This document shows positions 37,150 to 56,582 of a stretch of DNA of 64,000 nucleotides, piece by piece. The notes below the pieces were generated by a model. The model was not told the DNA's origin. It saw nothing but the letters and a program-made list of their open reading frames with translations, and did no database searches. The stretch is from Escherichia coli (lineage in GTDB: Bacteria > Pseudomonadota > Gammaproteobacteria > Enterobacterales > Enterobacteriaceae). The stretch is taken from the NCBI RefSeq assembly GCF_044647545.1, contig NZ_CP172818.1. One strand, written 5' to 3'. Made by a program: the position numbers and the translations under genes. Positions within the stretch are counted from its first letter, which is position 1, and the number at the start of each line of letters is the position of its first letter.

Positions 37150-39684
37150 ATGGCCGGGAATGACCGCGAGCCAATTGGACGCAAAGGGAAACCGACGCGT
37201 CCGGTCAAACAAAAGGTAAGCCGTCGTCGTTACGAAGATGACGATGATTACGACGATTATGATGACTATGAGGATGAAGAACCGATGCCGCGCAAAGGTA
37301 AGGGCAAAGGCAAAGGGCGTAAGCCTCGTGGCAAACGCGGCTGGCTATGGCTGCTGCTAAAACTGGCTATCGTTTTTGCCGTGCTGATCGCCATTTACGG
37401 CGTTTATCTCGATCAAAAAATTCGCAGCCGTATTGATGGCAAGGTCTGGCAATTGCCCGCGGCAGTTTATGGCCGAATGGTCAACCTTGAGCCAGACATG
37501 ACCATCAGCAAGAACGAGATGGTGAAGCTGCTGGAGGCGACCCAGTATCGTCAGGTGTCGAAAATGACCCGTCCTGGCGAATTTACCGTGCAGGCCAACA
37601 GCATTGAGATGATCCGCCGTCCGTTTGATTTCCCGGACAGTAAAGAAGGGCAGGTGCGTGCACGTCTGACCTTTGATGGCGATCATCTGGCGACGATCGT
37701 CAATATGGAGAACAACCGTCAGTTCGGTTTCTTCCGTCTTGATCCGCGCCTGATCACTATGATCTCTTCACCAAACGGTGAGCAACGTCTGTTTGTGCCG
37801 CGCAGTGGTTTCCCGGATCTGCTGGTGGATACTTTGCTGGCAACAGAAGACCGTCATTTTTACGAGCATGATGGGATCAGTCTCTACTCCATCGGACGTG
37901 CGGTGCTGGCAAACCTGACCGCCGGACGCACGGTGCAGGGGGCGAGTACGCTGACGCAACAGCTGGTGAAAAACCTGTTCCTCTCCAGCGAGCGTTCTTA
38001 CTGGCGTAAAGCGAACGAAGCCTACATGGCGCTGATCATGGACGCGCGTTACAGCAAAGACCGTATTCTTGAGCTGTATATGAACGAGGTGTATCTCGGT
38101 CAGAGCGGCGACAACGAAATCCGCGGCTTCCCGCTGGCGAGCTTGTATTACTTTGGTCGCCCGGTAGAAGAATTGAGCCTCGATCAGCAGGCGCTGTTGG
38201 TGGGTATGGTGAAAGGGGCGTCCATCTACAACCCGTGGCGTAACCCGAAACTGGCGCTGGAGCGACGTAACCTGGTGCTACGTCTGCTGCAACAGCAACA
38301 GATTATTGATCAAGAACTCTATGACATGTTGAGTGCACGTCCGCTGGGTGTTCAGCCGCGCGGTGGGGTGATCTCTCCTCAGCCAGCCTTTATGCAACTG
38401 GTGCGTCAGGAGCTGCAGGCGAAATTAGGCGATAAGGTAAAAGATCTCTCCGGCGTGAAGATCTTCACTACCTTTGACTCGGTGGCCCAGGACGCGGCAG
38501 AAAAAGCCGCCGTGGAAGGCATTCCGGCACTGAAGAAACAGCGTAAGTTGAGCGATCTGGAAACCGCGATTGTGGTCGTCGACCGCTTTAGTGGTGAAGT
38601 TCGTGCGATGGTCGGTGGTTCTGAGCCGCAGTTTGCGGGCTACAACCGTGCGATGCAGGCGCGTCGTTCGATTGGTTCTCTTGCAAAACCAGCGACTTAT
38701 CTGACGGCCTTAAGCCAGCCGAAAATCTATCGCCTGAACACGTGGATTGCCGATGCGCCAATCGCGCTGCGTCAGCCGAATGGCCAGGTCTGGTCACCGC
38801 AGAACGATGACCGTCGTTATAGCGAAAGTGGCAGAGTGATGCTGGTGGATGCGTTGACCCGTTCGATGAACGTGCCGACGGTAAATCTGGGGATGGCGCT
38901 GGGGCTGCCTGCGGTTACGGAGACCTGGATTAAACTGGGCGTACCGAAAGATCAGCTGCATCCGGTTCCGGCGATGCTGCTGGGGGCGTTGAACTTAACG
39001 CCAATCGAAGTGGCGCAGGCATTCCAGACTATCGCCAGCGGCGGTAACCGTGCACCGCTTTCTGCGCTGCGTTCGGTAATTGCGGAAGATGGCAAAGTGC
39101 TGTATCAGAGCTTCCCGCAGGCGGAACGCGCGGTTCCGGCGCAGGCGGCGTATCTGACACTATGGACCATGCAGCAGGTGGTACAACGTGGTACGGGGCG
39201 TCAGCTTGGGGCGAAATACCCGAACCTGCATCTGGCAGGGAAAACAGGGACTACCAACAATAACGTAGATACCTGGTTTGCGGGCATTGACGGCAGCACG
39301 GTGACCATCACCTGGGTAGGCCGTGATAACAACCAGCCGACCAAACTGTATGGAGCCAGCGGGGCAATGTCGATTTATCAGCGTTATCTGGCTAACCAGA
39401 CGCCAACACCGCTGAATCTTGTTCCGCCAGAAGATATTGCAGATATGGGCGTGGACTACGACGGCAACTTTGTTTGCAGCGGTGGCATGCGTGTCTTGCC
39501 GGTCTGGACCAGCGATCCGCAATCGCTGTGCCAGCAGAGTGAGATTCAGCAGCAACCGTCAGGCAATCCGTTTGATCAGTCTTCTCAGCCGCAGCAACAA
39601 CCGCAACAGCAACCTGCTCAGCAAGAGCAGAAAGACAGCGACGGTGTAGCTGGTTGGATCAAGGATATGTTTGGTAGTAATTAA
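37150..39684 (+). CDS. mrcB: Penicillin-binding protein 1B (bifunctional glycosyltransferase/transpeptidase)
   Basis: ORF 37135..39684; start at ATG 37150 ([19 protein letters not shown]...); acidic D/Y-rich N-terminal tract, TM anchor, transpeptidase motifs; 844 aa. Confidence 0.93.
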
Positions 39685-42935: not shown

Positions 42936-43825
42936 TGAGCGGCTTACCTCTTATTTCGCGCCGTCGACTGTTAACGGCGATGGCGCTTTCTCCGTTGTTA
43001 TGGCAGATGAATACCGCCCACGCGGCGGCTATTGATCCCAATCGTATTGTGGCGCTGGAGTGGTTGCCGGTGGAATTACTGCTGGCGCTCGGCATCGTGC
43101 CTTACGGCGTGGCGGATACCATCAACTATCGCCTGTGGGTCAGCGAACCGCCATTGCCGGACTCAGTGATTGACGTTGGTTTGCGTACAGAACCTAACCT
43201 TGAACTGCTGACCGAAATGAAACCATCGTTTATGGTCTGGTCGGCAGGATATGGCCCTTCACCAGAAATGCTGGCACGTATTGCGCCGGGTCGCGGATTT
43301 AACTTCAGTGACGGCAAACAGCCGCTGGCGATGGCGCGTAAATCACTGACGGAAATGGCAGATTTACTTAACCTGCAAAGCGCAGCAGAAACGCATTTAG
43401 CGCACTATGAAGACTTTATCCGCAGCATGAAACCCCGCTTTGTGAAGCGTGGTGCACGCCCGTTATTGCTGACGACACTTATCGATCCGCGCCATATGTT
43501 GGTCTTCGGTCCAAACAGCCTGTTCCAGGAAATTCTTGATGAGTACGGCATCCCAAATGCCTGGCAAGGGGAAACCAACTTTTGGGGCAGTACCGCCGTC
43601 AGTATCGATCGTCTGGCAGCGTATAAAGACGTTGATGTGCTCTGTTTTGATCACGACAACAGCAAAGACATGGATGCGCTAATGGCAACCCCGCTGTGGC
43701 AGGCCATGCCGTTTGTCCGCGCCGGACGCTTTCAGCGCGTTCCGGCGGTCTGGTTCTATGGTGCGACGCTTTCTGCAATGCACTTTGTGCGTATTCTGGA
43801 TAACGCCATCGGAGGTAAAGCGTGA
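42935..43825 (+). CDS. fhuD: Iron(III)-hydroxamate periplasmic binding protein
   Basis: ORF 42932..43825 (track start is TTG); ATG at 42935 gives MSGLPLISRRRLLTAMALSPLLWQMNTAHA (Tat-type signal); 296 aa. Confidence 0.92.
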   Translation: MSGLPLISRRRLLTAMALSPLLWQMNTAHAAAIDPNRIVALEWLPVELLLALGIVPYGVADTINYRLWVSEPPLPDSVIDVGLRTEPNLELLTEMKPSFMVWSAGYGPSPEMLARIAPGRGFNFSDGKQPLAMARKSLTEMADLLNLQSAAETHLAHYEDFIRSMKPRFVKRGARPLLLTTLIDPRHMLVFGPNSLFQEILDEYGIPNAWQGETNFWGSTAVSIDRLAAYKDVDVLCFDHDNSKDMDALMATPLWQAMPFVRAGRFQRVPAVWFYGATLSAMHFVRILDNAIGGKA

Positions 43826-45804
43826 GTAAACGAATTGCGCTTTTTCCGGTGTTATTGCTGGTGCTGCTGGTGGTTGCTGCTGCGGCGTTGACCTGGATGA
43901 ACTTCTCGCAGGCGCTGCCGCGCAGCCAGTGGGCGCAGGCCGCCTGGTCGCCGGATATTGACGTCATCGAGCAGATGATTTTTCACTACAGCTTGTTGCC
44001 GCGTCTGGCGATTTCGCTGCTGGTGGGCGCGGGCCTGGGGATGGTGGGCGTGCTGTTTCAGCAAGTGCTGCGTAACCCGCTGGCGGAACCGACGACGTTG
44101 GGTGTTGCAACAGGCGCGCAACTGGGGATTACCGTCACCACGCTCTGGGCGATCCCAGGTGCTATGGCGAGCCAGTTTGCTGCGCTGGCAGGGGCTTGTG
44201 TTGTTGGCTTAATCGTCTTTGGCGTCGCGTGGGGGAAACGGCTTTCGCCGGTAACGCTGATCCTCGCGGGGCTGGTAGTGAGCCTTTATTGCGGCGCAAT
44301 CAATCAGTTACTGGTTATCTTCCATCATGACCAACTGCAAAGCATGTTCCTGTGGAGCACCGGAACGCTGACGCAAACCGACTGGGGCGGCGTTGAGCGT
44401 TTATGGCCGCAGCTGCTGGGCGGCGTGATGCTGACGTTATTGCTACTTCGCCCGTTAACCCTGATGGGGCTTGATGATGGCGTGGCGCGCAATCTCGGGC
44501 TGGCCTTGTCGCTCGCGCGTCTGGCGGCGTTGTCGCTGGCGATTGTCATCAGTGCGCTGCTGGTGAACGCGGTGGGGATTATCGGCTTTATCGGGTTGTT
44601 CGCGCCGCTGCTGGCAAAAATGCTGGGGGCGCGGCGTCTGCTGCCACGGTTAATGCTGGCGTCGCTGATTGGTGCGTTAATTCTGTGGCTTTCTGATCAA
44701 ATCATCCTCTGGCTGACTCGCGTGTGGATGGAAGTTTCCACCGGTTCGGTCACTGCGTTGATCGGTGCGCCGCTGTTACTGTGGTTGCTGCCGCGTTTAC
44801 GCAGCATTAGCGCGCCGGATATGAAGGTGAACGATCGTGTCGCGACTGAACGCCAACACGTGCTGGCGTTTGCCCTCGCGGGCGGCGTGCTGCTGTTGAT
44901 GGCTGTGGTGGTGGCGCTGTCGTTTGGTCGTGATGCGCACGGCTGGACGTGGGCGAGCGGGGCGTTGCTCGAGGATTTGATGCCCTGGCGCTGGCCGCGA
45001 ATTATGGCGGCGCTGTTTGCTGGCGTCATGCTGGCGGTGGCGGGCTGTATTATTCAGCGGCTGACCGGAAACCCGATGGCAAGCCCGGAAGTGCTGGGGA
45101 TTAGCTCCGGCGCGGCGTTTGGCGTGGTGTTAATGCTGTTTCTGGTGCCGGGTAATGCCTTTGGCTGGCTGTTACCCGCAGGCAGTCTCGGGGCGGCGGT
45201 GACGCTGTTGATCATTATGATCGCCGCCGGACGCGGTGGATTTTCCCCACACCGCATGTTACTGGCGGGGATGGCGTTAAGTACCGCGTTCACGATGCTT
45301 TTGATGATGTTGCAGGCAAGTGGTGACCCGCGAATGGCGCAAGTTCTGACCTGGATTTCCGGTTCGACCTACAACGCGACCGAGGCGCAGGTCTGGCGCA
45401 CGGGAATTGTGATGGTAATTTTGCTGGCGATTACCCCGCTGTGCCGCCGCTGGCTGACCATTTTACCGCTGGGCGGTGATACCGCACGAGCCGTGGGGAT
45501 GGCGCTGACGCCGACGCGAATTGCGCTGCTGCTGTTAGCGGCTTGCCTGACAGCGACTGCGACAATGACCATTGGACCGTTGAGTTTTGTTGGTTTAATG
45601 GCACCGCATATTGCGCGGATGATGGGCTTTCGACGGACGATGCCGCATATTATGATTTCGGCGCTGGTGGGTGGTTTACTGCTGGTGTTCGCTGACTGGT
45701 GTGGGCGGATGGTGCTGTTTCCATTCCAGATCCCAGCGGGGCTGCTGTCGACCTTTATCGGCGCGCCGTATTTTATCTATTTGTTGAGAAAGCAGAGCCG
45801 TTAA
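43822..45804 (+). CDS. fhuB: Iron(III)-hydroxamate ABC transporter permease (duplicated-domain)
   Basis: ORF 660 aa, polytopic membrane protein; 4-nt overlap with fhuD. Confidence 0.93.
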   Translation: MSKRIALFPVLLLVLLVVAAAALTWMNFSQALPRSQWAQAAWSPDIDVIEQMIFHYSLLPRLAISLLVGAGLGMVGVLFQQVLRNPLAEPTTLGVATGAQLGITVTTLWAIPGAMASQFAALAGACVVGLIVFGVAWGKRLSPVTLILAGLVVSLYCGAINQLLVIFHHDQLQSMFLWSTGTLTQTDWGGVERLWPQLLGGVMLTLLLLRPLTLMGLDDGVARNLGLALSLARLAALSLAIVISALLVNAVGIIGFIGLFAPLLAKMLGARRLLPRLMLASLIGALILWLSDQIILWLTRVWMEVSTGSVTALIGAPLLLWLLPRLRSISAPDMKVNDRVATERQHVLAFALAGGVLLLMAVVVALSFGRDAHGWTWASGALLEDLMPWRWPRIMAALFAGVMLAVAGCIIQRLTGNPMASPEVLGISSGAAFGVVLMLFLVPGNAFGWLLPAGSLGAAVTLLIIMIAAGRGGFSPHRMLLAGMALSTAFTMLLMMLQASGDPRMAQVLTWISGSTYNATEAQVWRTGIVMVILLAITPLCRRWLTILPLGGDTARAVGMALTPTRIALLLLAACLTATATMTIGPLSFVGLMAPHIARMMGFRRTMPHIMISALVGGLLLVFADWCGRMVLFPFQIPAGLLSTFIGAPYFIYLLRKQSR

Positions 45805-45849
45805 TTTTTCCATATAACGGCCCTTAACTCCTGGATGGATAAAGCTTTT

Positions 45850-45952
45850 ACGCGGCAACGGATGCCCGATGCGACGCTGTGGCGTCTTATCGGGCCTACA
45901 AACGGTCCTGATCTGTAGGTCGGATAAGGCGTTTACGCCGCATCCGACAAAC
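45850..45952. repeat. REP / BIME-type repetitive extragenic palindromes between fhuB and hemL
   Basis: Two inverted REP-like units gatgcgacgctgtggcgtcttatcgggcctaca and tgtaggtcggataaggcgtttacgccgcatccgac. Confidence 0.75.
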
Positions 45953-45961
45953 CATGCTGGA

Positions 45962-47242
45962 TCACAACTTCGCAAACACCCGACGTGCAGCATCGATGGT
46001 GTTATTGATATCTTCCATGCTGTGCGCTACAGACATAAAGCCCGCTTCAAACGCTGATGGTGCCAGGTAAACACCTTCATCCAGCATCATATGGAAGAAA
46101 CGCTTAAAGCGTTCCACGTCACAGGCCATTACATCCTGATAGCACGTCACGGACTCGGCGTCGGTAAAGAAAATACCGAACATGCCGCCAACGTGGTTAA
46201 CGACCAGCGGAATTCCGGCTTCTTCTGCCGCTTCCAGCAGACCTTCTGCCAGACGTGTTGTCAGCTCATCCAGCGTTTCGTGAACGCCCGGCTGTGCGAC
46301 TTCATTCAGACAGGCGAAACCGGCCGCCATCGCAATCGGGTTACCGGAAAGCGTACCCGCCTGATAGACCGGACCAGTCGGGGCCAGCGCATCCATTACA
46401 TCACGACGACCACCGAATGCGCCTACCGGCATTCCACCGCCGATGATTTTGCCGAGGCAGGTTAAATCTGGCACTACGCCGTAATAATCCTGTGCGCCAG
46501 CTAGCGCTACGCGGAAACCGGTCATCACTTCATCGATGATCAGCAACGCGCCAAATTCGTCACACAGCGCACGCAGACCTGGCAGGAACTCTGGCAGCGG
46601 CGGAACACAGTTCATATTGCCTGCCACCGGCTCGACGATAATACAGGCAATCTCTTGCGGGTATTGCTCAAACGCGGCGCGTACAGAAGCCAGATCGTTA
46701 TAAGTACAGGTTAAGGTATGTTTGGCGAAATCTGCCGGAACGCCCGGCGAATTTGGCTGGCCTAACGTGAGTGCGCCAGAACCGGCTTTCACCAGCAGGC
46801 AGTCAGCGTGACCGTGGTAACAACCTTCAAATTTAATGATTTTGTCGCGACCGGTAAAACCACGGGCCAGGCGGATGGCGCTCATCGTCGCTTCAGTGCC
46901 GGAGTTCACCATGCGCACCATATCCATGGTCGGGACCAGTTCGGTCACCAGTTGCGCCATTTTCACTTCCATTTCGGTTGGTGCACCAAAGCTTAAACCA
47001 CGCTCGGCGGCTTCAATCACGGCATTGCGGATCGCCGGATGGTTATGGCCCAGCACCATCGGCCCCCAGGAACCGACATAATCGATATAGGCTTTGCCAT
47101 CAACATCGTACAGATAAGCGCCGTCCGCTTTTTCGATAAACAGTGGAGTGCCGCCCACGCCAGTAAAGGCGCGAACAGGGGAGTTCACACCGCCAGGGAT
47201 CAGCTCGCGCGCTGCGCTGTAAAGATTTTCAGACTTACTCAT
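45962..47242 (-). CDS. hemL: Glutamate-1-semialdehyde 2,1-aminomutase
   Basis: ORF 426 aa [26 protein letters not shown]...; PLP-dependent class III aminotransferase. Confidence 0.95.
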
Positions 47243-47448
47243 GGAGGGTTCCTGATTCGTAGAAAAAGTGAATGGCTGCTATTCTATGTTATTCATAACA
47301 AGTTAAATACTCGTCAAACATCAGGCTGCTTGTACTGGTGCAATCCTGATTTCTTAGAGTATAAAAGTTTTGTGCATTTGAAACATTACGCTTTGCAAAG
47401 GATTTTCATGGAACGTGCGAGTAAAATGCCGTCATCTTATTTGTATGA

Positions 47449-48888
<1,440 letters not shown>

Positions 48889-48969
48889 ACGAAATACCAG
48901 GGTATTAGATAATGGCGATTATTATTGGGTTAGAATTTGCCCAATTGCCGATGTCGTTTGGAGCAAAAT

Positions 48970-49314
48970 ATGAGTGATGACGTAGCACTGCCGCTGGAGT
49001 TTACCGACGCAGCAGCCAACAAAGTTAAAAGCCTGATCGCTGACGAAGATAACCCGAATCTGAAATTACGCGTGTATATCACCGGTGGCGGTTGCAGCGG
49101 CTTCCAGTATGGTTTCACCTTTGATGATCAGGTGAACGAAGGCGATATGACCATCGAAAAACAGGGCGTTGGCCTGGTGGTTGATCCGATGAGCCTGCAA
49201 TATCTGGTCGGCGGTTCCGTTGACTATACCGAAGGACTGGAAGGTTCTCGTTTCATCGTGACCAACCCGAACGCGAAAAGCACCTGCGGTTGCGGTTCTT
49301 CCTTTAGCATCTAA
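48970..49314 (+). CDS. erpA: Iron-sulfur cluster insertion protein ErpA (A-type carrier)
   Basis: ORF 48937..49314; start at ATG 48970 ([22 protein letters not shown]...); C-terminal CGCGSSF; 114 aa. Confidence 0.93.
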
Positions 49315-49324
49315 TCTGTTGTTC

Positions 49325-49351
49325 ATGTGCCGGATAAACTATCCGGCACAT
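49325..49351. terminator. Hairpin between convergent erpA and yadS
   Basis: atgtgccggata-aac-tatccggcacat inverted repeat. Confidence 0.6.
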
Positions 49352-49360
49352 CTTCTCTCT

Positions 49361-49984
49361 TCAACGCCCATTCTCATCCAGCGCAAACGTCGGTAGCTTA
49401 AGATGCCAACGAATAGCCGCCAGCCGAATCAATAGCGTCACGACCATGCCCATCATACTGGCTGTTTCCAGTGGTACGGAAAATGTGTAATAAGCCGTAG
49501 CGTGGACAATACCGCCGATAATACAGGCTGTTGCGTAGATTTCTGTACGTAAAATCATGGGGATTTCGCGGGCCAGTACATCACGAATGATCCCGCCGCC
49601 AACGCCAGTAATGACGCCCATACAAACCGCGATTAACGGACCGGCTTCCGCATTAAAGGCTTTATTCACGCCAATGCCGACAAACACCGCCAGACCAACG
49701 GCGTCCAGCACCGGCAACATCCATTTTGGTAAGCGTCTTGGCTGGCGCACCAGCACGATGGTCAGCATGCTGGTGACCATTGCAACGACCAGATCGGTGG
49801 GATCTTTCACCCAAAATACCGGGCCGTGATCCAGCGCCATGTCGCGAATTGTTCCGCCGCCTACTGCGGTAACCACGCCCAATACCAGTACACCAAAAGG
49901 GTCCATACGCAATTTTCCGGCTAACAAAACGCCAGAGATAGCAAATACCGCTGTGCCGACTATATCCAGCCAATAGACGAGCAT
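49361..49984 (-). CDS. yadS: UPF0126 family inner membrane protein
   Basis: ORF 207 aa, polytopic, two internal repeats with GGGxIRD motif. Confidence 0.88.
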   Translation of the reverse strand: MLVYWLDIVGTAVFAISGVLLAGKLRMDPFGVLVLGVVTAVGGGTIRDMALDHGPVFWVKDPTDLVVAMVTSMLTIVLVRQPRRLPKWMLPVLDAVGLAVFVGIGVNKAFNAEAGPLIAVCMGVITGVGGGIIRDVLAREIPMILRTEIYATACIIGGIVHATAYYTFSVPLETASMMGMVVTLLIRLAAIRWHLKLPTFALDENGR

Positions 49985-50021
49985 TGTTCAATCCCCACTG
50001 AGCACCTGAAAAGGTCAGGCA

Positions 50022-50822
50022 CTAATCTACCTGTGAAAGCGCATTACAGAGCTGTTGTGCAGCGAGGATAATACGTGGGCTTGCACGTTCAAACCAGTCA
50101 CTCGTGAGAGGAATAACGGGAATTTTGAGCTGTTCACCCCAGTATTGTTTGATTTTAGGAATTTGGTCCGATCCGCCTGTAATGACAATCGCCTGTGGCG
50201 AGCGTGCTAACACCTGTTCACGGCTAACTTGCGGCCAGGGAACCCGGCTGTCTTTAAAGATGTTTTCTCCGCCACAAACTTCGAGTACCTGGTTTTGAAT
50301 CGACTCTTTTCCACTGGTAAATGGCGGATTAATGCCGAATTGCAGAAAAACACGTTTTTTAGGTTTATCAGCATATTGCGCTTTCAATTGCGCGTACTGA
50401 TCCAGCAGGGATTGCGCGGCTTGTTCGGCCTTATCCGGTTGCGGACTCCAGGGGGCCAGTTGACGTAACGCATTGGCAATTTGTTCAATGCTTGTCGCAT
50501 CGACCCACATCACTTTTATTCCCAGCGAAGCCAGCTGGTCAACCTGCCGCTCGGCATTACCTCCACGCCAGGCAATCACCAGATCGGGTTTCAGCGCGAC
50601 AATGCGTTCCAGATTCATCCCCTGCCAGGTGGAAACCTGCTCAATCTTTTGCGCTTGTGGAGGATAGTCGGAATAGCTGCTGACCCCAACCGGCGTGATC
50701 CCGGCGGCAAAGGCAAGTTCAGTGTTGGCGGGAGAAAGCGTGATGACGCGCGGCGCGGCATTGAGCCACAGCGGCGCGAGAAAAGACAGGGCGACCAGCG
50801 CCCTGAACAGTGACTTAGCCAT
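50022..50822 (-). CDS. btuF: Vitamin B12 periplasmic binding protein
   Basis: ORF 50022..50849; start at ATG 50822 ([30 protein letters not shown]...); 266 aa; start overlaps mtn 3' end by 8 nt. Confidence 0.9.
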
Positions 50823-51513
50823 GTGCCAGTTTCTGCACCAGTGACTCAACCATCAGGCTGGACTGTTTAGCGGCAACAGCCAGGAACTCATCGAAGCTAA
50901 GATGAGACTGTTGATCGGCCACGTCGGAGATGGCGCGTACTACGACAAACGGGACGTTGAAATTGTGGCAGACATGGGCGATTGCCGTCGCTTCCATCTC
51001 TACAGCAATGGCCTGTGGGAAGTTGTGGCGGATTTTCGCCAGACCAACAGAACCGTTGATGAATGCGTCGCCGCTAACAATCAGGCCACGTACAGCGTTA
51101 AGATTCAGTTCGGCAATGCAGGCCTCAGCGGCAGCGATCAGTTTATCGTCAGCTTTAAAGCCTGCCGGGCAGCCTGGTAACTGGCCGTATTCATAACCAA
51201 ATGCCGTGACATCCGCGTCGTGATAACGAGCTTCGTCCGAGACAACGATATCGCCCACTTTCAGCGTTGGTGCCAGGCCACCGGCAGAACCGGTGTTAAT
51301 AATCACATCTGGCTTGCAGTGTTCCAACAGCAGAGTGGCACCCAGCGCCGCAGCGACTTTACCGATGCCCGATTTCAGAAGCGCAACCTCGGTTCCATTC
51401 AGTTGGCCGGTATAGATTTCGCAACCGCCCAGACTGATAGTTTGACGGTTTTCGATTTTGTCACGCAGCAGCGTAACTTCTTCTTCCATTGCACCAATGA
51501 TGCCGATTTTCAT
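50815..51513 (-). CDS. mtn: 5'-methylthioadenosine / S-adenosylhomocysteine nucleosidase
   Basis: ORF 232 aa [40 protein letters not shown]... Confidence 0.95.
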
Positions 51514-51596
51514 AGATTTACTCGCGATAAGCCCGATTTGAAGGCATAGTTTACCATGCGCTTACGGGGAAGCGTATTTCTCACGCGGGAGAGGAC

Positions 51597-53114
51597 ATGG
51601 CACAGATTGATTTCCGAAAAAAAATAAACTGGCATCGTCGTTACCGTTCACCACAGGGCGTTAAAACCGAACATGAGATCCTGCGGATCTTCGAGAGCGA
51701 TCGCGGGCGTATCATCAACTCTCCGGCAATTCGTCGTCTGCAACAAAAGACCCAGGTTTTTCCACTGGAGCGCAATGCCGCCGTGCGCACGCGTCTTACC
51801 CACTCGATGGAAGTCCAGCAGGTGGGGCGTTATATCGCTAAAGAGATTTTAAGCCGCCTGAAAGAGCTTAAATTACTGGAGGCGTATGGTCTCGATGAAC
51901 TGACCGGGCCCTTTGAAAGCATTGTTGAGATGTCATGCCTGATGCACGATATCGGCAATCCGCCGTTTGGTCATTTTGGCGAAGCGGCGATAAATGACTG
52001 GTTTCGCCAGCGTTTGCACCCGGAAGATGCCGAAAGCCAGCCTCTGACTGACGATCGCTGCAGCGTGGCAGCACTACGTTTACGGGACGGGGAAGAACCG
52101 CTTAACGAGCTGCGGCGCAAAATACGTCAGGACTTATGTCATTTTGAGGGGAATGCACAAGGCATTCGTCTGGTGCATACATTGATGCGGATGAATCTCA
52201 CCTGGGCGCAGGTTGGCGGTATTTTAAAATATACCCGTCCAGCGTGGTGGCGTGGCGAAACGCCTGAGACACATCACTATTTAATGAAAAAGCCGGGTTA
52301 TTATCTTTCTGAAGAAGCCTATATTGCCCGGTTGCGTAAAGAACTTAATTTGGCGCTTTACAGTCGTTTTCCATTAACGTGGATTATGGAAGCTGCCGAC
52401 GACATCTCCTATTGTGTGGCAGACCTTGAAGATGCGGTAGAGAAAAGGATATTTACCGTTGAGCAGCTTTATCATCATTTGCACGAGGCGTGGGGCCAGC
52501 ATGAGAAAGGTTCGCTCTTTTCGCTGGTGGTTGAAAATGCCTGGGAAAAATCACGCTCAAATAGTTTAAGCCGCAGTACGGAAGACCAGTTTTTTATGTA
52601 TTTACGGGTAAACACTCTAAATAAACTGGTACCCTACGCGGCACAACGATTTATTGATAATCTGCCTGCGATTTTCGCCGGAACGTTTAATCATGCATTA
52701 TTGGAAGATGCCAGCGAATGCAGCGATCTTCTTAAGCTTTATAAAAATGTCGCTGTAAAACATGTGTTTAGCCATCCAGATGTCGAGCAGCTTGAATTGC
52801 AGGGCTATCGGGTCATTAGCGGATTATTAGAGATTTATCGCCCTTTATTAAGCCTGTCGTTATCAGACTTTACTGAACTGGTAGAAAAAGAACGGGTGAA
52901 ACGTTTCCCTATTGAATCGCGCTTATTCCACAAACTCTCGACGCGCCATCGGCTGGCCTATGTCGAGGCTGTCAGTAAATTACCGTCAGATTCTCCTGAG
53001 TTTCCGCTATGGGAATATTATTACCGTTGCCGCCTGCTGCAGGATTATATCAGCGGTATGACCGACCTCTATGCGTGGGATGAATACCGACGTCTGATGG
53101 CCGTAGAACAATAA
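51597..53114 (+). CDS. dgt: Deoxyguanosinetriphosphate triphosphohydrolase (dGTPase)
   Basis: ORF 505 aa; HD-domain motif [11 protein letters not shown]...[12 protein letters not shown]. Confidence 0.95.
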
Positions 53115-53170
53115 CCAGGCTTTTGTAAAGACGAACAATAAATTTTTACCTTTTGCAGAAACTTTAGTTC

Positions 53171-53198
53171 GGAACTTCGCGCTATAAAACGAATCTGA
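53171..53198 (+). promoter_or_regulatory. Sigma-E (RpoE)-type promoter of degP
   Basis: -35 ggaactt (53171..53177) and -10 tctga (53194..53198) with 16-nt spacer, about 45 nt upstream of degP start. Confidence 0.75.
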
Positions 53199-53243
53199 AG
53201 AACACAGCAATTTTGCGTTATCTGTTAATCGAGACTGAAATAC

Positions 53244-54668
53244 ATGAAAAAAACCACATTAGCACTGAGTGCACTGGCTCTGAGTTTAGGTTTGGCGTTA
53301 TCTCCGCTCTCTGCAACGGCGGCTGAGACTTCTTCAGCAACGACAGCCCAGCAGATGCCAAGCCTTGCACCGATGCTCGAAAAGGTGATGCCTTCAGTGG
53401 TCAGCATTAACGTAGAAGGTAGCACAACCGTTAATACGCCGCGTATGCCGCGTAATTTCCAGCAGTTCTTCGGTGATGATTCTCCGTTCTGCCAGGAAGG
53501 TTCTCCGTTCCAGAGTTCTCCGTTCTGCCAGGGTGGCCAGGGCGGTAATGGTGGCGGCCAGCAACAGAAATTCATGGCGCTGGGTTCCGGCGTCATCATT
53601 GATGCCGATAAAGGCTATGTCGTCACCAACAACCACGTTGTTGATAACGCGACGGTGATTAAAGTCCAACTGAGCGATGGCCGTAAGTTCGACGCGAAGA
53701 TGGTTGGCAAAGATCCGCGCTCTGATATCGCGCTGATCCAGATCCAGAACCCGAAAAACCTGACCGCAATTAAGATGGCGGATTCTGATGCACTGCGCGT
53801 GGGTGATTACACCGTAGCGATTGGTAACCCGTTTGGTCTGGGCGAGACGGTAACTTCCGGGATTGTCTCTGCGCTGGGGCGTAGCGGCCTGAATGCCGAA
53901 AACTACGAAAACTTCATCCAGACCGATGCAGCGATTAACCGTGGTAACTCCGGTGGTGCGCTGGTTAACCTGAACGGTGAACTGATCGGTATCAACACCG
54001 CGATCCTCGCACCGGACGGCGGCAACATCGGTATCGGTTTTGCTATCCCGAGCAACATGGTGAAAAACCTGACCTCGCAGATGGTGGAATACGGCCAGGT
54101 GAAACGCGGTGAGTTGGGTATTATGGGCACTGAGCTGAACTCCGATCTGGCGAAAGCGATGAAAGTTGACGCCCAGCGCGGTGCTTTCGTAAGCCAGGTT
54201 CTGCCGAATTCTTCCGCCGCGAAAGCGGGCATTAAAGCGGGTGATGTGATCACCTCACTGAACGGTAAGCCAATCAGCAGCTTTGCCGCACTGCGTGCTC
54301 AGGTGGGCACTATGCCGGTAGGTAGCAAACTGACCCTGGGCTTATTGCGCGACGGGAAGCAGGTTAACGTGAACCTGGAACTTCAGCAGAGCAGCCAGAA
54401 TCAGGTTGATTCCAGCACCATCTTCAACGGCATTGAAGGCGCTGAGATGAGCAACAAAGGCAAAGATCAGGGCGTGGTAGTGAACAACGTGAAAACGGGC
54501 ACTCCGGCTGCGCAGATCGGCCTGAAGAAAGGTGATGTGATTATTGGCGCGAACCAGCAGGCAGTGAAAAACATCGCTGAACTGCGTAAAGTTCTCGACA
54601 GCAAACCGTCTGTGCTGGCACTGAACATTCAGCGCGGCGACAGCACCATCTACCTGTTAATGCAGTAA
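53244..54668 (+). CDS. degP: Periplasmic serine endoprotease / chaperone DegP (HtrA)
   Basis: ORF 474 aa; signal peptide, catalytic GNSGGAL, two PDZ domains. Confidence 0.95.
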   Translation: MKKTTLALSALALSLGLALSPLSATAAETSSATTAQQMPSLAPMLEKVMPSVVSINVEGSTTVNTPRMPRNFQQFFGDDSPFCQEGSPFQSSPFCQGGQGGNGGGQQQKFMALGSGVIIDADKGYVVTNNHVVDNATVIKVQLSDGRKFDAKMVGKDPRSDIALIQIQNPKNLTAIKMADSDALRVGDYTVAIGNPFGLGETVTSGIVSALGRSGLNAENYENFIQTDAAINRGNSGGALVNLNGELIGINTAILAPDGGNIGIGFAIPSNMVKNLTSQMVEYGQVKRGELGIMGTELNSDLAKAMKVDAQRGAFVSQVLPNSSAAKAGIKAGDVITSLNGKPISSFAALRAQVGTMPVGSKLTLGLLRDGKQVNVNLELQQSSQNQVDSSTIFNGIEGAEMSNKGKDQGVVVNNVKTGTPAAQIGLKKGDVIIGANQQAVKNIAELRKVLDSKPSVLALNIQRGDSTIYLLMQ

Positions 54669-54675
54669 TCTCCCT

Positions 54676-54710
54676 CAACCCCTTCCTGAAAACGGGAAGG
54701 GGTTCTCCTT
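54676..54710 (+). terminator. Hairpin terminator downstream of degP
   Basis: aaccccttcc-tgaaaac-gggaaggggtt followed by ctcctt. Confidence 0.6.
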
Positions 54711-54822
54711 ACAATCTGTGAACTTCACCACAACTCCATACATCTTCATCATCCTTTGGGCATTTGCACAATGCCGTACGTTACGTACTTCCTTATGCTA
54801 AGCCGTGCATAACGGAGGACTT

Positions 54823-55980
54823 ATGGCTGGCTGGCATCTTGATACCAAAATGGCGCAGGATATCGTGGCACGTACCATGCGCATCATCGATACCAATATC
54901 AACGTAATGGATGCCCGCGGGCGAATTATCGGCAGCGGCGATCGTGAGCGTATTGGTGAATTGCACGAAGGAGCATTGCTGGTACTTTCACAGGGACGAG
55001 TCGTCGATATCGATGACGCGGTGGCACGTCATCTGCACGGTGTGCGGCAGGGGATTAATCTACCGTTACGGCTGGAAGGTGAAATTGTCGGCGTAATTGG
55101 CCTGACAGGTGAACCAGAGAATCTGCGTAAATATGGCGAACTGGTCTGCATGACGGCTGAAATGATGCTGGAACAGTCGCGGTTGATGCACTTGTTGGCG
55201 CAGGATAGCCGTTTGCGGGAGGAACTGGTGATGAACCTGATTCAGGCAGAGGAGAATACTCCCGCACTTACTGAATGGGCGCAACGGCTGGGGATCGATC
55301 TCAATCAACCGCGAGTGGTGGCTATTGTTGAGGTCGACAGCGGTCAGCTTGGTGTGGACAGCGCAATGGCGGAGTTACAACAACTGCAAAACGCGCTGAC
55401 TACGCCCGAGCGTAATAATCTGGTGGCGATTGTCTCGCTAACCGAAATGGTGGTGTTGAAACCGGCGTTGAACTCTTTTGGGCGCTGGGATGCAGAAGAT
55501 CATCGTAAGCGAGTTGAACAACTGATTACCCGCATGAAAGAGTACGGCCAGCTGCGTTTTCGCGTTTCACTGGGCAACTATTTTACCGGTCCTGGCAGTA
55601 TTGCCCGATCCTATCGTACGGCGAAAACGACGATGGTGGTGGGTAAACAGCGAATGCCAGAAAGTCGCTGCTATTTTTATCAGGATCTGATGTTGCCTGT
55701 GTTACTCGACAGTTTGCGTGGCGACTGGCAGGCCAACGAACTGGCGCGACCGCTGGCGCGGCTGAAAGCGATGGACAATAACGGCTTGCTGCGGCGAACG
55801 CTGGCGGCGTGGTTTCGCCACAATGTGCAACCGCTGGCAACGTCAAAGGCGTTGTTTATTCATCGTAATACTCTGGAATATCGGCTTAATCGTATATCGG
55901 AACTGACCGGGCTTGATTTGGGCAATTTTGATGACAGGTTGCTGCTGTATGTGGCGTTACAACTGGATGAAGAGCGGTAG
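54823..55980 (+). CDS. cdaR: Carbohydrate diacid regulator CdaR (SdaR)
   Basis: ORF 54805..55980 (track start GTG); ATG 54823 gives MAGWHLDTKMAQDIVARTMRIIDTNINVMD...; C-terminal HTH; 385 aa. Confidence 0.9.
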   Translation: MAGWHLDTKMAQDIVARTMRIIDTNINVMDARGRIIGSGDRERIGELHEGALLVLSQGRVVDIDDAVARHLHGVRQGINLPLRLEGEIVGVIGLTGEPENLRKYGELVCMTAEMMLEQSRLMHLLAQDSRLREELVMNLIQAEENTPALTEWAQRLGIDLNQPRVVAIVEVDSGQLGVDSAMAELQQLQNALTTPERNNLVAIVSLTEMVVLKPALNSFGRWDAEDHRKRVEQLITRMKEYGQLRFRVSLGNYFTGPGSIARSYRTAKTTMVVGKQRMPESRCYFYQDLMLPVLLDSLRGDWQANELARPLARLKAMDNNGLLRRTLAAWFRHNVQPLATSKALFIHRNTLEYRLNRISELTGLDLGNFDDRLLLYVALQLDEER

Positions 55981-55998
55981 GTCGATTACAAAATTACA

Positions 55999-56021
55999 GC
56001 CGGGTGAGACTTTACCCGGCC
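55999..56021 (-). terminator. Hairpin downstream of yaeH (minus strand), also between cdaR and yaeH
   Basis: gccgggtgagactttacccggc inverted repeat; U-rich tract follows on minus strand. Confidence 0.5.
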
Positions 56022-56034
56022 CACAGAATGACCA

Positions 56035-56421
56035 TTATTTACGCGTCAGTTTTTCCAGATCGGCTTCAATCTCGCTGATCTTATTGGTTACTACTGACTC
56101 CAGGTGACGTAAGTCGTCGAGGATCTTACGCTTAAGATCAACTTCGCTGCGGTCACGCTGGCAGATTTGATCAAGCTCATCAATGATATACCGTAGATTC
56201 GGGCTGATTTCCTGGACTTCTTTATAACCCTGACCCACACCATCAGCGACGACCGTTTTACGCTGACGCGGATATTTAAACTTCACGCTCTTGGCGAAAA
56301 ACTCGCCTTTGTCTTTCTGGAAATAGATTTTCAGAATATCGTTGTTGGCTTCCTGCCGGAGGCTGTAACGATCAATTTCTTCAGGATTGGTAATACCCAG
56401 ACTTTTCAGATTGTCGTACAT
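56035..56421 (-). CDS. yaeH: UPF0325 family protein
   Basis: ORF 128 aa [42 protein letters not shown]... Confidence 0.88.
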
Positions 56422-56582
56422 AGCGTTACCTCAAAATGAGTCAGTAAATTGTGCTTATTTTAGCATTTGGCCTGGCCCGCCCGGCTCGACTGTGATCGCA
56501 GAAAGCCTTTTTCTTCCAGACTTCTATCATGGCGTAAAAATCAAAAAATTACCTGCTTTATTGTGGCGATAAAATTCACGTT

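Follow-up and report, generated by a model that had tools for sequence, protein, structure and literature searches.

A BIME-2 element in the convergent fhuB-hemL spacer of Escherichia coli

REPs and BIMEs have been known in Escherichia coli since the 1980s and 1990s, and the short spacer on which the genes fhuB and hemL converge raises the question of which kind of element it harbors and whether that element acts on either of its neighbors. We addressed this question in a 64,000-nt stretch of an E. coli genome (NCBI RefSeq assembly GCF_044647545.1, contig NZ_CP172818.1), hereafter called the window. A first-pass annotation had described the spacer as a REP/BIME cluster and had listed mRNA stabilization, transcription termination, and the binding of IHF and gyrase as its functions. 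This account proved correct in outline but over-generalized in its list of functions.

Composition and class of the repeat element

In the window, fhuB (plus strand) and hemL (minus strand) are convergent and separated by an intergenic spacer of 157 nt (45805 to 45961). Gene names are those of the RefSeq annotation of E. coli FDAARGOS_497, which is 100% identical to the window over the 211-nt stretch around the element (K-12, 93.9%). K-12 coordinates correspond to window coordinates plus 127,640, an offset derived from both stop codons and a gap-free alignment. The NC_000913.3 annotation between 127.5 and 177.4 kb consisted of CDS features only, and no curated REP number for the locus was found there. 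Counterpart spacers of other Escherichia genomes were fetched with a degenerate pattern of the FhuB C terminus and then aligned. The spacer and its flanks are made up of the following features:

43822 to 45804, plus strand: fhuB coding sequence, ferric-hydroxamate ABC permease, with the stop codon TAA at 45802 to 45804 (open reading frame list and RefSeq annotation of FDAARGOS_497)
45805 to 45815, no strand: unique left spacer TTTTTCCATAT (alignment to Escherichia spacers; the direct repeat begins at 45816)
45816 to 45829, plus strand: remnant CTAC-to-GTAG linker AACGGCCCTTAACT, to be compared with the internal AAACGGTCCTGATCT (direct repeat; aligns with AACAGCCCTGAACC of E. whittamii)
45830 to 45856, plus strand: decayed third y-type REP (alignment to the y units of E. 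coli SCPM-O-B-8794 and E. whittamii, which are intact)
45857 to 45863, no strand: head-to-head linker AACGGAT, 7 nt, from the decayed y to the z2 unit, corresponding to the S-type linker of BIME-2 (alignment)
45864 to 45899, minus strand: z2-type REP, GCCCGATGCGACGC-TGTG-GCGTCTTATCGGGC, then CTAC at 45896 to 45899 (degenerate-pattern match, folding, and alignment)
45900 to 45914, no strand: linker AAACGGTCCTGATCT, 15 nt, from CTAC to GTAG; strain-variable, with 5 differences from K-12, whose REP stems match those of the window
45915 to 45948, plus strand: y-type REP, GTAG at 45915 to 45918, then the hairpin GTCGGATAAGGCG-TTTA-CGCCGCATCCGAC at 45919 to 45948
45949 to 45961, no strand: 13-nt spacer AAACCATGCTGGA from the y hairpin to the hemL stop codon (comparison with the y-z2 junctions of E. 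whittamii L127)
45962 to 47242, minus strand: hemL coding sequence, glutamate-1-semialdehyde 2,1-aminomutase, with the stop codon TGA at 45964 to 45962 (open reading frame list and RefSeq annotation)

The REPs of E. coli are imperfect palindromes of 30 to 40 nt with a conserved GTAG foot and a stem mismatch, and they are divided into the types y, z1, and z2; the mismatch is needed for binding by TnpA_REP (PMC3333891). The two inverted palindromes reported by the first-pass annotation are present almost exactly where it had placed them, in opposite orientation and with 15 nt between them. The z2 unit appears as an iREP on the plus strand and in its GTAG form on the minus strand, and its stem consists of 7 bp, a 2-by-2 mismatch, and 5 bp closed by a 4-nt loop. 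Both hairpins fall within the REP size range (32 nt for z2 and 30 nt for y), both carry the foot (CTAC for z2 and GTAG for y), and both contain noncomplementary stem bases (GC opposite TT in z2 and, as is typical of y REPs, AA opposite GC in y). The whole element lies between the stop codons of fhuB and hemL and is hence extragenic, as are other REPs, and the y hairpin is the first structure downstream of the stop codon on the hemL mRNA. A degenerate REP pattern matched once, at the z2 palindrome, against 0.00 matches expected from 100 shuffles. Each intact hairpin is stable on both strands (-17.4 to -21.7 kcal/mol, z scores of -5.1 to -7.1 against shuffles), with values of -21.7 and -20.7 kcal/mol for z2 and -17.4 and -18.4 kcal/mol for y, and the entire spacer also folds better than its shuffles (z scores of -2.5 on the plus strand and -3.7 on the minus strand).

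Upstream of these two units, a third, y-type REP has decayed. It reads CCTG instead of GTAG, carries stem substitutions and a 7-nt deletion in the 3' arm, and forms no hairpin (its folding energies, -2.0 and -1.7 kcal/mol, do not surpass those of shuffles). The region around it forms a direct repeat with the intact part of the element, positions 45816 to 45862 being 72% identical to positions 45901 to 45947. On the opposite side, AAACCATGCTGGA resembles an S linker joined to a truncated foot of z2 (AAACAATGCCCGA in tandem arrays), which suggests that this 13-nt spacer is probably derived from a BIME as well; it has this length also in E. albertii, E. whittamii, Escherichia sp. genomes, and K-12. 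Taking together the linker copy, the decayed y unit, and the probably BIME-derived spacer, the element extends from about 45816 to 45961. The interval originally proposed, 45850 to 45952, thus encloses both intact units, but the repeat-derived DNA is wider and accounts for about 146 of the 157 nt, the 11 nt of TTTTTCCATAT being the sole part of the spacer without repeat homology.

BIME-2 elements are tandem arrays of y and z2 units with short linkers and a copy number that varies between strains (PMC3333891; also PMC1187871), the linkers being of type S between heads and of type s, l, or r between tails (PMC3333891). The spacer displays this organization: the units alternate in orientation in the order y (decayed, plus), z2 (minus), y (plus), and the linkers measure 7 and 15 nt, the longer one aligning with a linker of the yhdP-tldD array. 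By alignment, the z2-linker-y unit also occurs in the yhdP-tldD, yfcL-mnmC, and dolP-yraQ spacers, and the y unit is invariant across these three loci and the window. Among its paralogs, the 88-nt unit matches the yhdP-tldD array best (87.6% over 97 nt). The first-pass annotation had named a lack of further genomic copies as the finding that would speak against it; as lower bounds, at least 34 z2-linker-y copies per genome, with a median of at least 40, were present in 5425 of the 5426 complete E. coli genomes searched. Judged by its sequence, the fhuB-hemL element is a BIME-2, and the proposed REP/BIME cluster between two convergent genes is borne out both by the RefSeq annotation and by its y and z2 features. 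Every testable sequence feature of REPs and of BIME-2 was found, whereas the features that define BIME-1, intrinsic terminators, or naRNA4 were not.

The naRNA4 family was considered because its Rfam model is built on the Y-l-Z2 repeats of REP325 (PMC4550694). RF02564 gave three matches of 39.9, 35.5, and 31.4 bits, one of them spanning 45833 to 45896, but its gathering score is 59.5 bits. Since even the best score lies below this threshold, the element is not a naRNA4 locus, and the Rfam scan of the whole window returned nothing at the BIME at or above a gathering threshold.

The cluster had further been called the only interspersed repeat of the window. This holds for canonical elements: half-site and hairpin scans of the whole 64 kb found only the z2 and y palindromes, and ERIC/IRU core motifs gave no match in the window with 3 mismatches allowed. 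It does not hold for repeated DNA in general. By megablast against about 5424 genomes, positions 24001 to 45810 and 45955 to 64000 are single-copy, whereas positions 1 to 24000 match 2 places in the median genome and as many as six. The second place is not a canonical REP. Paralogy of rpnC as its source proved wrong, rpnC having a median of 1 place, and a plasmid search for the source identified none.

Several other features of the window were recorded on the way. Four tandem 96-nt repeats, 67 to 87% alike, lie at 2122 to 2505 (minus strand) in the coding region of yacH (DUF3300), where the protein presumably has repeats of 32 residues. The 12-nt unit AAGACAGGAGGT occurs about five times in tandem at 20182 to 20241, at the 3' end of the rpnC open reading frame, which is 259 aa long in the window (19416 to 20195) compared to about 300 codons in K-12 (903 bp); the closest genomes have about 279 extra bases in this stretch. 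An 18-nt tandem repeat, TTACGAAGATGACGATGA, is present in 2.7 copies at 37230 to 37277, near the position of the mrcB start in K-12. Above the gathering score, Rfam identified the t44 RNA (62086 to 62172, plus strand, 83.5 bits) and the HtrA 5' UTR thermometer (53204 to 53249, plus strand, 77 bits). Finally, the best match to positions 24001 to 45810, from the yad fimbrial genes to fhuB, was only 90 to 95% identical in 4788 of 5424 genomes, and the neighboring segments are less divergent (95 to 99% identity in most genomes).

Alleles of the spacer

Two alleles dominate the locus in E. coli. The 157-nt BIME allele, which is also that of K-12, was found in 1700 complete genomes and a 34-nt hairpin allele in 3704, and 68% of the complete genomes have no BIME at all between fhuB and hemL. 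The 34-nt allele, TAAAATGCCTCGCCCGGTGGGCGAGGCAAAATCA, is single-copy, and O157:H7 is among its carriers. Its hairpin (-20.6 kcal/mol) begins 6 nt past the hemL stop codon and is directly followed on the hemL strand by UUUUAUUAA, so that the allele scores as an intrinsic terminator of hemL. We also considered that the short allele might be a deletion derivative of the BIME, and we rejected this origin, as the two share nothing between the stop codons but the first base. Homology ends at both stop codons, with one shared base after that of fhuB, so that the short allele is a replacement and not a deletion. All alleles, whether BIME or not, have in common a stable GC hairpin 6 to 13 nt from the hemL stop codon.

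Among the BIME-carrying Escherichia genomes, the number of units differs:

E. albertii: 2 units
Window, K-12, and two Escherichia sp. genomes: 2 units and 1 decayed unit
E. coli SCPM-O-B-8794: 3 intact units
E. whittamii: 9 units, in a spacer of 440 nt

Counting the alleles without BIME, this locus varies from 0 to 9 units across Escherichia, as expected of a BIME-2, and such strain polymorphism of BIMEs has been described before (Bachellier 1997, as cited in PMC1187871; PMC3333891). The 440-nt spacer of E. whittamii L127 consists of nine alternating REPs, five y and four z2, whose units are nearly identical.

The BIME is dispensable at fhuB-hemL, since most E. coli strains carry a compact terminator hairpin there instead. 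Because most strains do without it, a neutral or selfish passenger stays a serious rival to a functional element: the BIME would be tolerated in a promoter-free convergent spacer and would spread or shrink through RAYT activity and recombination without any selected effect on fhuB or hemL. Besides its absence from 68% of the complete genomes, the decay of one of the three units, the range of unit numbers, and the unrelated palindrome families in the same spacer of other Enterobacteriaceae are all in line with a passenger. BIMEs are moreover known to make intergenic regions polymorphic between strains (PMC1187871), and presence/absence polymorphism fits the neutral reading equally well. The pattern of substitutions argues in the other direction. 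Between the window and K-12, both intact stems are identical, while about 9 positions differ in the loops and linkers, and the decayed unit carries differences too. The stem changes that we did see are compensated: the z2 stem has C:G in the window and T:A at other loci, and the y stem has T:A in the window and C:G in E. albertii. Gene conversion among REP copies could, however, mimic such stem conservation. The recurrence of a stable GC hairpin just past the hemL stop codon in all alleles likewise suggests that a hairpin is wanted there. Weighing both sides, we regard the passenger as possible, yet we favor an element that acts on its neighborhood.

Palindromes are also common in this spacer outside Escherichia. 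Over 115 enterobacterial species, the fhuB-hemL spacer ranged from 33 to 538 nt, with GC-rich palindromes in nearly all of the sequences listed. According to crude counts of patterns, 49 spacers had GTAG/CTAC-footed REP-like units of genus-specific sequence, 39 had palindromes of the CCCTCTCC...GGGAGAGG type, and 32 were no longer than 60 nt. The spacer looks like a hotspot of palindromic repeats. In Citrobacter spp. (L017, L040, and L055), a 36-nt spacer contains the stem GCCTCGCC...GCGAGGC, which resembles GCCTCGCCC...GGGCGAGGC of the short E. coli allele; this likeness hints at an old short allele or at an exchange of it between genera, although chance could explain it as well.

Probable effects on RNA ends and possible effects on DNA

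We consider it very likely that the locus holds a BIME-2, composed of one decayed and one intact y unit with an intact z2 unit between them, in a convergent spacer and with a local effect that is mainly exerted at the RNA level. The most likely role is that of an RNA 3'-end hairpin, mainly for hemL. According to the literature, the repeat would belong to a nonautonomous family recognized by TnpA_REP/RAYT through the GTAG foot and the stem mismatch. Both convergent transcripts would read into the BIME and would there fold two stable hairpins. On the hemL mRNA, the y hairpin, 13 nt past the UGA, probably blocks 3'-to-5' exonucleases, which would leave a stable 3' UTR fragment. Removal of REPs from 3' UTRs has been found to shorten the mRNA half-life (Newbury 1987, as cited in PMC12306157).

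A second effect may concern translation. With fewer than 16 nt between it and a stop codon, a REP reportedly stalls ribosomes and reduces translation (Liang 2015, as cited in PMC12306157). At 13 nt from the stop codon of hemL, the y hairpin is within this distance, while the first intact hairpin past the fhuB stop codon is 59 nt away and thus outside it. Such closeness to the stop codon (within 15 nt) may let the y hairpin slow termination on hemL and lower HemL output; by analogy with these REPs, the BIME may damp translation termination of hemL.

An RNA that fits this picture has been listed in K-12. Table S1 of the RepRanger paper (PMC12306157) contains a putative 76-nt RNA, AC0173, at positions 173,549 to 173,624 of NC_000913 on the minus strand. 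Converted to window coordinates, it corresponds to one further feature:

45909 to 45984, minus strand: window equivalent of AC0173 (coordinate conversion from the K-12 entry)

This interval comprises the final 23 nt of hemL, the 13 nt between the stop codon and the y hairpin, that hairpin itself, and another 10 nt past it. If a 3' exonuclease is halted by a REP, a fragment like AC0173 is what would be expected. The suggestion that the element stabilizes mRNA is thus plausible, in that a K-12 hemL 3' UTR RNA of 76 nt ends 10 nt past the y hairpin; both the stabilizing and the translational effect are extrapolated from other REPs and from this one putative entry derived from K-12 RNA-seq. Since no curated Term-seq 3' end maps to the REP, any protected species may be minor or specific to certain conditions.

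We then asked whether the BIME could itself end transcription, as the first-pass annotation had supposed, by serving as a bidirectional terminator for the convergent fhuB and hemL transcripts. Its hairpins are stable on both strands, terminators are usually found between convergent genes, the other allele of this site resembles an intrinsic hemL terminator, and termination is among the functions proposed for BIMEs in reviews (PMC1187871). However, neither hairpin is followed by a T-run on either strand, and a scan for hairpins with a T-run from 45500 to 46300 on both strands returned 0 sites, while the same scan detected the hairpin of the 34-nt allele. In K-12, which has the BIME allele, Adams et al. 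reported bicyclomycin-sensitive Rho termination regions on both strands. The one at 173,376(+) falls within fhuB; the other, at 173,016(-) with a Rho score of 8.6, is antisense to fhuB and sits about 430 nt inside it. Their curated Term-seq list for K-12 has no 3' end inside the fhuB-hemL spacer. Given the missing U-tract and the Rho-dependent termination on both strands nearby, the BIME is not an intrinsic terminator. With Rho regions on both strands and no curated 3' end in the spacer, transcription would read through the REPs and be ended by Rho further downstream, and we consider a bidirectional terminator unlikely.

The two alleles invite a more far-reaching interpretation, namely, that they form a natural switch in hemL 3'-end formation. 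With the terminator allele, hemL transcripts would have a clean end, whereas the BIME allele would give a REP-capped, Hfq-associated 3' UTR RNA and let hemL transcripts run antisense into fhuB until Rho acts, thereby coupling the synthesis of heme precursors to the uptake of ferric hydroxamates. We regard this as an improbable scenario, and if it were true, the coupling would be confined to about one-third of E. coli strains.

AC0173 also raises the possibility of a dedicated sRNA locus, in which the hemL 3' UTR fragment would act in trans in association with Hfq and the REP would provide its 3' hairpin. The entry is described as a putative sRNA that is differentially expressed under microaerobic conditions, and Hfq binding was among the criteria by which it was selected (PMC12306157). 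No target, seed region, or validation by Northern blot or other means is reported for AC0173, though, it is missing from two-thirds of E. coli genomes, and we found no literature linking hemL with RIL-seq. Because AC0173 consists mostly of multicopy REP sequence, the mapping of its reads and any base-pairing specificity are doubtful. A trans-acting sRNA is thus very unlikely in our view.

At the DNA level, the BIME is a candidate gyrase site and not an IHF site, gyrase binding being a possible second role next to the RNA hairpin. BIME-2 elements, and especially y REPs, are overrepresented among gyrase cleavage sites (PMC6379681), which makes binding of gyrase to a candidate site in the fhuB-hemL BIME plausible by analogy; in the part of the gyrase Topo-seq supplementary text that was available, no fhuB or hemL entry was found. 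IHF binding, for which only the general notion of BIMEs as IHF-binding elements speaks, is characteristic of BIME-1, in which a y and a z1 unit surround a long conserved L linker, often with an IHF site (PMC3333891). An IHF site in the spacer was rejected, as the consensus WATCAANNNNTTR had no match within 45805 to 45961 even with 1 mismatch allowed. With no such consensus, with linkers of only 7 and 15 nt instead of a long one, and with a partner unit that has the long z2 inner stem (GCGACGC...GCGTC), the element is not a BIME-1/RIP, and an IHF-binding pair of REPs has next to no probability here.

Relation to known repeat systems

The element is already known in kind and does not depart from published REP/BIME biology. 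Its discovery value is small, and the gain is a cleaner annotation, namely, that of a BIME-2 that is wider than stated before, counts a decayed unit among its parts, and has its y hairpin close enough to the hemL stop codon (within 15 nt) for the effect on translation that is reported for REPs. The sole mildly interesting point is the two-allele swap at the hemL 3' end: the clean exchange of a BIME for a 34-nt terminator hairpin represents a natural experiment on the effect of a REP upon its neighbor gene.

Compared to that 34-nt terminator allele, the BIME allele shares a stable GC hairpin just past the hemL stop codon (-17 to -22 kcal/mol, against -20.6 kcal/mol). However, the short allele is single-copy and has a U-rich tail on the hemL strand, whereas the BIME allele is multicopy, 157 nt long, and without a U-tract.

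The REPIN/RAYT systems of Pseudomonas and other bacteria likewise consist of inverted REP pairs with a conserved foot motif, and their repeats are thought to be mobilized by a single-copy, domesticated Y1 transposase. Their sequence family differs from that of the window element, and no RAYT gene was found within the 64-kb window.

BIME-1/RIP elements are intergenic and also made of an inverted REP pair with one y-type unit. The z1 unit, the long L linker, and the IHF consensus that characterize them are missing from the window element.

The closest relatives are the BIME-2 arrays, such as that of yhdP-tldD and REP325 between yjdM and yjdN, in which the same two palindromic units, y and z2, alternate in orientation and are joined by linkers that are short and variable. 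Unlike REP325 with its six Y-l-Z2 repeats, the window element has two working units and one decayed unit, and its z2 unit has C:G at the pair that normally separates y from z, where z2 usually has T:A. Nevertheless, it shares with these arrays the GTAG/CTAC feet, the stem mismatch, the extragenic site, and a copy number that varies by strain and species.
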